From Escherichia coli (GTDB lineage Bacteria > Pseudomonadota > Gammaproteobacteria > Enterobacterales > Enterobacteriaceae): a DNA stretch of 23,487 nt. This document shows positions 8,201 through 9,814 of this stretch, piece by piece. The notes below the pieces were generated by a model. The model saw only the letters and a program-made list of their open reading frames with translations, searched no databases and was not told the DNA's origin. A program made the translations under genes and the position numbers. Where the stretch lies: the NCBI RefSeq assembly GCF_003334315.1, contig NZ_QOWR01000067.1; one strand, given 5' to 3'. Every line of letters starts with the position of its first letter. Within the stretch, counting starts at the first letter, position 1.

Positions 8201-9814
8201 GGAAGCCTGTCGTTAATGACGCCACGGGATAATGTTACGCCAGTTAAACTCGAAGGGGCGGTCCGGATTACCGATAGCGCGACATTGACTCTGGGAAATG
8301 GCGTCGATACCACGCTTGCCGACCTGACGGCTGCCAGCCGGGGCAGTGTCTGGCTTAACAGCAATAATTCCTGTGCAGGTACCAGCAACTGCGAATATAG
8401 AGTAAACAGTTTGCTACTCAACGACGGTGATGTTTATTTGTCAGCACAAACAGCAGCGCCTGCCACAACTAACGGTATCTACAATACGCTGACAACCAAT
8501 GAACTTTCCGGTAGCGGTAATTTCTACCTGCATACCAACGTTGCAGGCTCCCGGGGCGATCAACTGGTCGTCAACAACAACGCCACTGGTAATTTTAAAA
8601 TCTTTGTTCAGGATACCGGCGTCAGCCCACAGTCTGACGACGCGATGACGCTGGTGAAAACAGGGGGAGGGGATGCTTCGTTTACGCTGGGCAATACCGG
8701 CGGTTTCGTTGATCTTGGGACCTATGAGTATGTCCTGAAAAGTGACGGCAACAGCAACTGGAACCTGACCAATGATGTCAAACCCAACCCGGACCCCATC
8801 CCAAATCCAAAGCCAGACCCAAAACCCGATCCAAAGCCAGACCCAAATCCAAAACCAGACCCTACTCCCGATCCAACGCCGACACCCGATCCGGAGAAAC
8901 GCATTACGCCTTCTACGGCAGCCGTACTCAATATGGCAGCAACATTACCGTTGGTATTTGATGCTGAGCTAAACAGTATTCGCGAGCGGTTGAACATAAT
9001 GAAAGCGAGTCCACACAACAATAATGTCTGGGGGGCGACGTATAACACCCGTAATAATGTCACCACCGATGCGGGTGCCGGGTTTGAGCAGACGCTGACC
9101 GGAATGACAGTGGGGATCGACAGCCGTAATGATATTCCTGAAGGAATTACCACGCTAGGCGCTTTTATGGGCTATTCCCATTCACATATCGGTTTTGATC
9201 GCGGAGGACATGGCAGTGTGGGCAGTTATTCTCTGGGCGGCTATGCCAGTTGGGAACATGAAAGTGGTTTCTATCTGGACGGTGTCGTGAAGCTGAACCG
9301 TTTTAAAAGTAACGTAGCAGGTAAAATGAGCAGCGGTGGAGCCGCCAATGGCAGTTACCACAGCAACGGGCTGGGCGGTCACATTGAAACCGGGATGCGA
9401 TTTACCGATGGTAACTGGAACCTGACGCCGTATGCATCGTTAACGGGGTTCACCGCTGATAACCCCGAATATCATTTATCCAATGGCATGAAATCGAAAT
9501 CAGTCGATACCCGCAGTATATATCGTGAACTGGGCGCAACGCTGAGTTACAACATGCGTCTGGGGAACGGTATGGAAGTTGAGCCGTGGCTGAAGGCGGC
9601 TGTGCGCAAAGAATTTGTCGATGATAACCGGGTGAAAGTGAATAGTGACGGTAATTTCGTCAATTATTTGTCGGGCAGACGTGGAATATACCAGGCAGGT
9701 ATTAAAGCCTCATTCAGCAGTACGTTAAGCGGGCATCTTGGGGTGGGGTATAGCCATAGTGCCGGTGTGGAATCCCCGTGGAACGCGGTAGCTGGTGTGA
9801 ACTGGTCGTTCTGA
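5240..9814 (+). CDS. ypjA: Adhesin-like type Va autotransporter (~1524 aa): signal peptide, repetitive beta-helix-type passenger, Pro-rich linker, C-terminal beta-barrel
   Basis: The long ORF is in frame from 5111; I prefer the ATG at 5240 (MNRTSPHYFRRSVLSLLISALIYAPPVMA, signal-peptide-like, GAGG 9 nt upstream). The passenger carries many degenerate ~19-20 aa repeats (T-x-I-N/K-GG-x-Q-x-V/I...), then PNPDPIPNPKPDPKPDP..., and the protein ends ...AGVNWSF with the terminal aromatic typical of an outer-membrane beta-barrel. The ypjA name is from position and size and is uncertain. Confidence 0.85.
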   Translation: MNRTSPHYFRRSVLSLLISALIYAPPVMAAFTTNVIGVVNDETVDGVQKVDERGTTNNTHIINHGQQEVYGGISNSSIIETGGEQLVSIDADINGQANNTTINGGRQSIEYGGISTGTIIESGNQYVHKGGTSNDTTIKGGTSRIEGGTANGTIIDGGSQRVTTQGHVDSTTINKSGSQDITQGSLATNTTINGGRQYVEQSTVETTTIKNGGEQRVYESRALDTTIEGGTQSLNSKSTAKNTHIYSGGTQIVDNTSTSDVIEVYSGGVLDVSGGTATNVTQHDGAILKTNTNGTTVSGTNSEGAFSIHNKVADNVLLKNGGHLEVSHSANKTIIKDKGTMSVLTNAKADATRIDNGGVMDVAGNATNTIINGGTQNINNYGIATGTNINSVTQNIKSGGKADTTIISSGSRQVVEKDGTAIGSNISAGGSLIVYTGGIAHGVNQETGSALVANTGAGTDIEGYNKLSHFTITGGEANYVVLENTGELTVVAKTSAKNTTVDAGGKLIVQKEAKTDTTRLNNGGILEVQDGGEAKHVEQQSGGALIASTTSGTLIEGTNSYGDAFYIRNSEAKNVVLENAGSLTVVTGSRAVDTIINANGKMDVYGKDVGTVLNSSGTQTIYASATSDKANIKGGKQTVYGLATEANIESGEQIVDGGSTDKTHINGGTQTVQNYGKAINTDIVSGLQQIMANGTAEDSIINGGSQVVNEGGLAENSVLNDGGTLDVREKGSATGIQQSSQGALVATTRATRVTGTRADGVAFSIEQGAANNILLANGGVLTVESDTSSDKTQVNMGGREIVKTKATATGTTLTGGEQIVEGVANETTINDGGIQTVSANGEAIKTKINEGGTLTVNDNGKATDIVQNSGAALQTSTANGIEISGTHQYGTFSISGNLATNMLLENGGNLLVLAGTEARDSTVGKGGAMQNLGQDSATKVNSGGQYTLGRSKDEFQALARAEDLQVAGGTAIVYAGTLADASVSGATGSLSLMTPRDNVTPVKLEGAVRITDSATLTLGNGVDTTLADLTAASRGSVWLNSNNSCAGTSNCEYRVNSLLLNDGDVYLSAQTAAPATTNGIYNTLTTNELSGSGNFYLHTNVAGSRGDQLVVNNNATGNFKIFVQDTGVSPQSDDAMTLVKTGGGDASFTLGNTGGFVDLGTYEYVLKSDGNSNWNLTNDVKPNPDPIPNPKPDPKPDPKPDPNPKPDPTPDPTPTPDPEKRITPSTAAVLNMAATLPLVFDAELNSIRERLNIMKASPHNNNVWGATYNTRNNVTTDAGAGFEQTLTGMTVGIDSRNDIPEGITTLGAFMGYSHSHIGFDRGGHGSVGSYSLGGYASWEHESGFYLDGVVKLNRFKSNVAGKMSSGGAANGSYHSNGLGGHIETGMRFTDGNWNLTPYASLTGFTADNPEYHLSNGMKSKSVDTRSIYRELGATLSYNMRLGNGMEVEPWLKAAVRKEFVDDNRVKVNSDGNFVNYLSGRRGIYQAGIKASFSSTLSGHLGVGYSHSAGVESPWNAVAGVNWSF
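8780..8893 (+). repeat. Tandem short-unit repeat encoding the Pro-x dipeptide linker (KPNPDPIPNPKPDPKPDPKPDPNPKPDPTPDPTPTPDPE) inside the autotransporter
   Basis: Directly visible run of near-identical units (ccaaagccagaccc / aaaacccgatcc ...) with perfect P-x periodicity. Confidence 0.8.

Follow-up and report, generated by a model that had tools for sequence, protein, structure and literature searches.

In-frame length polymorphism of the proline-rich spacer in the Escherichia coli autotransporter YpjA/EhaD

The self-associating autotransporter TibA of enterotoxigenic Escherichia coli (ETEC) carries "an additional proline-rich domain" between its junction region and its C-terminal domain (PMC3835316). 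We analysed a run of alternating X-Pro dipeptides with the same placement in YpjA (EhaD), an AIDA-type adhesin encoded by the gene ypjA in a window of 23,487 nucleotides of the E. coli chromosome (the whole stretch analysed, from contig NZ_QOWR01000067.1 of RefSeq assembly GCF_003334315.1), and followed its length across strains. Like YpjA, TibA is an AIDA-type protein with a Pertactin-like junction and a 12-strand barrel, and a TibA-annotated homologue was found among the matches to the YpjA C-terminus; however, the one TibA-annotated homologue in our alignment has just a short Pro-rich linker, and the likeness rests on the described architecture. The TibA domain is said, from work by Cote and Mourez in 2011, to be linked to invasion and adhesion phenotypes.

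A second relative in design is Bordetella pertactin, whose Pro-rich passenger repeats R1 (GGxxP) and R2 (PQP) also vary slowly in copy number among alleles and species, with R2 disordered in the crystal (PMC8931430). Its unit is PQP rather than X-P; its passenger undergoes cleavage, and its variation has been discussed in relation to vaccine-driven immunity. Alternating X-Pro sequences with a charged X, namely the (Glu-Pro)n(Lys-Pro)n of TonB and the (Glu-Pro)n of trypanosome procyclin, are classically extended and act as spacers. These proteins are not homologous to YpjA and the match is compositional; moreover, the extended form is an assumption for YpjA, whose tract appears as low-confidence coil in AlphaFold. 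In-frame variable-number tandem repeats (VNTRs) of bacterial surface proteins offer a further parallel, in that slippage in a coding repeat alters length without a frameshift. Classic contingency loci, in contrast, switch at high frequency and often toggle expression, whereas ypjA has an imperfect tract that seldom changes and leaves the frame intact when it does. What we describe is thus of a known kind, an in-frame repeat polymorphism in a proline-rich autotransporter spacer, of which YpjA is a new and well-documented case.

We consider, with a probability of about 0.8, that the tract is the proline-rich spacer of YpjA/EhaD and that its imperfect repeat occasionally gains or loses multiples of 6 bp (6n) by misalignment or short-homology recombination. 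A preliminary description, made from the sequence alone, had proposed a tandem repeat encoding a Pro-x linker at 8780-8893, and its coordinates and frame proved correct: a codon starts at position 8780, and the 38 in-frame codons encode KPNPDPIPNPKPDPKPDPKPDPNPKPDPTPDPTPTPDP, i.e. 19 X-Pro dipeptides. The peptide that it gave had the right sequence but lacked the first Lys. Proline represents 19 of the 38 residues of the tract versus 15 of the 1,486 (1.0%) of the remaining protein, which excludes chance (the expectation for 19 alternating prolines at any position is ~1e-35).

The repeat units had also been called near-identical, a statement that had to be corrected at the DNA level. Tandem Repeats Finder reported an array at 8800-8880 in which a 6-bp period reaches only 68% matches, with further periods of 12 (78%), 18 and 42 bp (87%, 1.9 copies); proline is encoded by a mixture of codons (CCA 10, CCC 5, CCG 3, CCT 1), and the X codons differ as well. 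The DNA is consequently better described as an imperfect nested repeat. For instability, the longer exact repeats nested within the tract, on which two repeat searches agree, are what matters: an exact 12-mer recurs at 8800 and 8842, an exact 10-mer at 8825 and 8867, and a 19-nt pair (Table 1) is the site of both a recurrent 24-bp deletion (96-nt allele, strain KMi029) and a 24-bp gain (144-nt allele, strain VG48B2). An open reading frame (ORF) of 143 amino acids on the minus strand over the tract (8722..9153) was attributed to the strong plus-strand coding signal and not retained.

To compare alleles, complete E. coli genomes were surveyed, of which about 2,525 out of 5,426 hold the tract region. 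The tract segment lies between the anchor sequences AACCTGACCAATGATGTC and CGCATTACGCC; allele lengths were counted as the tract plus the trailing Glu-Lys codons, and frequencies are estimates from identity bands and from the matches listed rather than a complete census. Representative and rare alleles were read from the sequence, the K-12-type background being recognised by shared flanks and an Ile codon marker. In this background, we found alleles of 78 nt (strain Z1323PEC0012), 90 nt (RM14721), 96 nt (KMi029 and about nine others), 102 nt (PER07-33), 108 nt (VR50), 114 nt (O68:H12), 120 nt (the window and K-12), 126 nt (O9:H10), 132 nt (DLI.6n) and 144 nt (VG48B2). The O157/O145-type allele has 126 nt and the B2-type allele 114 nt, while two O157:H7 genomes stand at 102 nt. 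Beyond these, E. albertii partial proteins have tracts of 30 and 32 residues, and three related partial proteins, one of them annotated as Escherichia, have 18-residue tracts. When 60 evenly spaced records were sampled with a 276-nt probe, the match spanned 276 nt in 30 records, 270 nt in 17, 282 nt in 10, 252 nt in one and 426 nt in one; in the remaining record, the match was partial.

The tract had been predicted to vary in length by exchanging whole 6-bp dipeptide units without breaking the frame, a proposal that invariance across isolates would have overturned. Instead, the complete E. coli genomes contain at least 10 lengths between 78 and 144 nt, and every difference between alleles is a multiple of 6 bp. 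No frameshifting or register-breaking tract allele was encountered among the sequences read, and the X residues (D, K, N, T) differ between alleles as does the length. Whole-unit differences among independent isolates, together with slippage-like junctions, class the tract as an in-frame VNTR. Apart from this series, strain F765 has an IS1203 element (IS3 family) inserted inside the Pro-X tract (540-645 of the extracted stretch), which truncates ypjA and leaves only the 3' end of the tract (…GACCCGACTCCCGAGCC…).

Each variant allele was then compared with its parent allele at the indel junctions. In eight variants, the difference is one clean insertion or deletion (6, 12, 24, 30 or 42 nt) with a direct repeat of 3-43 nt at its borders. 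Among the gains, the flanking repeat measures 9 nt for +6, 15 nt for +12 and 43 nt for +24; among the losses, it measures 3 nt for -6, 19 nt for -24 (the 8805/8829 repeat), 8 nt for -30 and 8 nt for -42, and an independent -24 event in the O157 allele is flanked by 11 nt. A 24-bp deletion arose independently in K-12-type and O157-type backgrounds. Two further alleles were interpreted by inspection: VR50 corresponds to the -24 allele with an additional 12-bp tandem duplication, and in PER07-33 an 18-bp deletion between ACNCCCG repeats is accompanied by a 3' segment characteristic of other allele types.

Slipped-strand or recombinational gain and loss of units had been suggested beforehand, and eight clean, repeat-bounded indels are the footprint expected of it, albeit at a low rate. 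The mechanism that we infer from these junctions would run as follows. Misalignment of short direct repeats during replication, or short-homology recombination, would occasionally duplicate or delete 6n bp; since such changes would preserve both the reading frame and the X-Pro register, viable alleles differing in spacer length could build up in the population. The events would be rare, and lengths mostly fixed within lineages, because synonymous and X-codon differences interrupt the repeat.

Several observations weigh against so simple a scheme. Recombination between alleles, or with the paralogue described below, could produce some of the variants: the VR50 allele needs two steps, and the PER07-33 and O157-type alleles have 3' sequences resembling other allele types or the paralogue. 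The -6 allele is flanked by just 3 nt of homology. Finally, many ypjA copies are annotated as pseudogenes, so part of the variation may be drift under weak selection.

Change in ypjA is slow. About 1,263 of the 2,525 genomes match the window allele at 99% identity or more over 276 nt, a level that rules out a 6-bp indel, and the 120-nt form is kept in independent K-12 laboratory derivatives (MG1655, C600, J53, MC4100, DH1 and ET12567). Likewise, the O157 allele finds a match of 99% identity or more over 441 nt in 267 genomes. Each rare variant was seen in one to about ten genomes. By our estimate from identity bands, about 94-97% of K-12-type genomes retain the 120-nt length and some 3-6% have another. 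The variation is a slow, lineage-level polymorphism and not a rapidly switching one.

A second autotransporter gene provides a natural counterpart. It lies between ymgJ and minE, is also labelled ypjA by RefSeq (6946-10332 in the stretch extracted from strain 1190) and encodes a protein of about 1,128 amino acids whose translocator is 97% identical to that of YpjA, while the passengers share approximately 40-47% identity. A literature search of partial coverage returned nothing relevant on this paralogue (ycgI), nor any paper reporting that the YpjA tract or the (Asn-Pro)n tract of the paralogue varies in length. At exactly the same position as in YpjA, the paralogue has (Asn-Pro)24-38 as its spacer, specified by an almost pure (AAY-CCR)n repeat. 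Among the best 60 records listed, the paralogue tract takes 17 lengths, and 58 of the 60 differ by 6n. Five porcine ETEC strains whose 3-kb flanks on both sides are free of mismatches have tracts of 270, 234, 264, 204 and 252 nt (Japan, two from Belgium, South Korea and the Netherlands). Isolates from the same study share their lengths (EC556/571/581; ETEC6333/6334), which argues against assembly noise. The 270-nt (NP)37 tract of EC556 and the 210-nt tract of TB06052 were considered as ypjA alleles and discarded, as their gene context is the ymgJ-minE locus.

Purer tandem repeats are less stable, and ypjA and its (NP)n paralogue conform to this rule: at the same protein position, the purer repeat changes much faster, which accounts for the comparative stability of the interrupted ypjA repeat, so that repeat purity would predict the rate. 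This comparison is the strongest indirect support for slippage. The two loci may also have exchanged sequence. The 3' end of the O157-type ypjA tract (DPTPEPTPTPVPEK, with a GAG codon) is identical to that of the paralogue tract (381-506 and 9232-9417 of the extracted stretches, the latter from strain 1190), and the 5' part of the O157-type tract contains extra Asn-Pro units; both features hint at such an exchange.

The same data bear on whether ypjA is a true contingency locus, that is, a hypermutable tract whose unit number changes at high frequency within a clone. The divergence of paralogue tracts between ETEC strains with identical 6-kb flanks would fit this idea, as would the two O157:H7 genomes that differ by 24 bp from the other 267. 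The ypjA length is nevertheless constant in about 1,263 K-12-type genomes, including K-12 derivatives that have been independent for decades, and in 267 O157-type genomes, and same-study isolates share lengths even in the paralogue. Furthermore, no change disturbs the reading frame, which leaves no room for on/off switching. For ypjA, this explanation is largely refuted, and we regard it as highly improbable.

Gene coordinates were transferred onto the window from the RefSeq annotation of the near-identical strain CP53: a 901-nt probe around the tract is 100% identical to CP53 ypjA and 99.9% identical to MG1655 ypjA. The annotated ATG at 5240 lies inside a longer ORF (5111..9814) and gives a product of 1,524 amino acids plus stop. 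An N-terminal Sec-type signal peptide of 29 amino acids, MNRTSPHYFRRSVLSLLISALIYAPPVMA, agrees with the length given elsewhere (PMC13101318). The passenger contains at least six PF16168 AIDA repeats followed by a PF03212 Pertactin domain in Pfam, in line with a beta-helical fold, and the translocator scores 328 bits against a cutoff of 16 with TIGR01414. With its signal peptide, passenger, pore helix and 12-strand barrel, the window protein is a type Va autotransporter of the AIDA-I/pertactin-like branch. Among the NCBIfam HMMs scanned, no YpjA-specific model scored above its own cutoff, so orthology and name rest on RefSeq annotation, DNA identity and synteny; near-identity and the chromosomal position next to ssrA place the gene in the YpjA/EhaD orthologue group. 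YpjA has been described as a biofilm-associated AIDA-group adhesin without a structure (PMC9289746), and its use as a display scaffold is on record (PMC13101318). Pseudogene annotations of ypjA and of its paralogue are frequent in complete genomes, the copies being frameshifted or missing the N- or C-terminus, also in typical O157:H7 and O145:H28 strains, which suggests weak or intermittent selection on ypjA. A second small in-frame repeat polymorphism exists within the gene: in the hydrophobic core of the signal peptide (LLISALIYAPP), positions 5288-5311 of the window are a 12-bp tandem duplication (TTGATATCTGCC / TTGATATATGCC), of which CP53 has a single copy and hence a signal peptide 4 amino acids shorter.

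The placement of the tract between passenger and barrel, as the preliminary description had it, is bracketed by Pfam, PDB alignments and AlphaFold alike. In Pfam, the Pertactin domain ends at nt 8770 and the Autotransporter domain (PF03797) begins at nt 9026. PDB alignments to P.69 pertactin, IgA1 protease and Hap end 0-3 residues before the tract (3 residues upstream for pertactin); the Vag8 translocator alignment resumes in the last three tract residues, and that of BrkA starts further on, in the pore helix. The AlphaFold model, built for the last 464 residues (query starting at 8420), has a mean pLDDT of 82.5. In this model, the beta strands of the junction domain, which aligns with the C-terminus of P.69 pertactin (1dab), reach residue 117; the tract (residues 124-156) is coil without secondary structure at pLDDT <50; and a 33-residue helix precedes a 12-strand barrel whose strands are mostly above 85. 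A Pfam match of Trypan_PARP (procyclin) over the tract (E=1.8e-7) is purely compositional.

Homologues were compared through a word-indexed protein search, which gave proteins of up to about 800 amino acids or fragments and returned no full-length YpjA cluster. In an alignment of 26 homologues, the tract corresponds to a gap of variable length and composition between the conserved blocks 'TYEY.L...W.L' and 'ITPSTAAVLNMAA', the latter, in the pore helix, being found in all homologues aligned. The linker is absent from the YejO type and consists of 5 to about 70 Pro/acidic-rich residues in the others. Such variation between the same conserved blocks points to a spacer rather than a specific domain. 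We conclude that the tract is a non-globular Pro-rich spacer between the junction domain and the pore helix, with a TibA-type architecture.

Table 1. Coordinates of the ypjA features in the window
Feature	Position	Strand	Evidence
ypjA/ehaD coding sequence, AIDA-type (type Va) autotransporter adhesin	5240..9814	+	ORF, translation, mapped CP53 RefSeq annotation, Pfam
Pertactin-like junction/autochaperone domain at the C-terminal end of the passenger, where the folded beta-helix ends	8402..8770	+	PF03212, E=1.6e-45
(X-Pro)x19 spacer, imperfect nested 6/12/24/42-bp repeat, length-polymorphic	8780..8893	+	Sequence and allelic series
Pair of identical 19-mers in direct orientation (8805-8823 and 8829-8847), offset by 24 bp	8805..8847	+	Exact-repeat search, indel junctions
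Alpha-helix filling the barrel pore and joining spacer to barrel	8909..9007	+	AlphaFold helix (residues 164-196), homologue block
12-stranded outer-membrane beta-barrel (translocator)	9020..9808	+	PF03797 (E=3.3e-46), TIGR01414, AlphaFold strands (residues 201-463)

The spacer probably exits the barrel at its outer mouth, some five residues above the pore helix, and bears the beta-helix. A polyproline-II conformation rises by ~3.1 Angstrom per residue. Assuming an extended conformation, 38 residues would span about 12 nm, and the natural ypjA alleles approximately 7-14 nm. Capsule and exopolysaccharide can mask short adhesins such as autotransporters (PMC8286834), which makes an effect of length on reach plausible, and the suggestion in the preliminary description that linker length alters how far the passenger projects, here through lipopolysaccharide (LPS) or capsule, may be maintained at that strength. 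On the other hand, the 26-homologue alignment shows that YejO-type proteins function without a linker, and this weighs on the idea. A stronger version would make X-Pro slippage an evolvable setting of reach past O-antigen or capsule, slow in ypjA and fast in the paralogue, the paralogue tract then being a genuine in-frame contingency repeat selected for length diversity, for instance in porcine ETEC; we hold this to be unlikely.

A less demanding explanation is neutral drift, in which slippage changes linker length without phenotype and nothing more than flexibility, hydrophilicity and an intact frame is required of the tract. It agrees with linkers that range from 0 (YejO type) to about 70 residues among homologues with little sequence conservation, with the frequent pseudogene status of ypjA in the surveyed genomes and with rare variants scattered across hosts and sources; the exclusive 6n steps, too, are explicable by the 6-bp periodicity of the DNA alone. 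It accounts less readily for the fact that, within the YpjA clade, E. coli, E. albertii and the paralogue all keep the X-Pro register and a tract no shorter than about 18 residues, which suggests some constraint on having a spacer, or for the lack of frameshifting or register-breaking alleles among the sequences read. An unconstrained linker of this kind is equally compatible with the data as an effect on reach, and we tentatively retain drift as a serious possibility.

Alternatively, the exposed Pro-rich repeat could be immunodominant and its variants selected by antibodies, as proposed for pertactin R1/R2. The tract does occupy the position of the pertactin C-terminal proline-rich region, immediately after the end of the Pertactin-domain alignment, its X residues vary along with its length, and pertactin alleles differ in repeat number on a slow timescale (PMC8931430). 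Against this, the spacer is the part of the passenger nearest to the membrane and is likely buried in LPS, and its variants are rare and not clearly host-associated. YpjA is, moreover, not known to be expressed or immunogenic in vivo, and we take YpjA to be silent in K-12 under laboratory conditions. This explanation therefore seems improbable.

Whatever the effect of length, occasional 6n changes in the YpjA spacer leave the current view of how autotransporters work unchanged. Their interest is more practical: YpjA/EhaD is a widespread, poorly characterised E. coli adhesin, and its natural spacers of 24 to 46 X-Pro-type residues, with up to about 90 in the paralogue, draw a map of permissible linker lengths for engineering. 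The ypjA tract can also serve as a small in-frame length marker for lineage typing, and the pair formed by ypjA and its paralogue is a clean natural comparison of repeat purity versus indel rate at the same protein position.

Downstream, only 160 bp separate the ypjA stop codon (9814) from the 3' end of ssrA, the tmRNA gene on the minus strand at 9975-10337, beyond which lies smpB. There is no prophage between ypjA and ssrA in the window (9814-10337); in K-12, the CP4-57 prophage, integrated at ssrA, lies between these genes. CP53 has an IS3 element (7678-8840 of the extracted stretch) between a tRNA gene and the ypjCB pseudogene, which is absent from the window (~2298); apart from this, 7 mismatches and a single 12-bp gap distinguish the two sequences across 21 kb. 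The tRNA at 2129-2204 of the window was called Met (anticodon CAT) by ARAGORN and is annotated as tRNA-Ile by RefSeq in CP53, a pattern presumably expected of an ileX/ileY-type tRNA that is read as Ile after lysidine modification.

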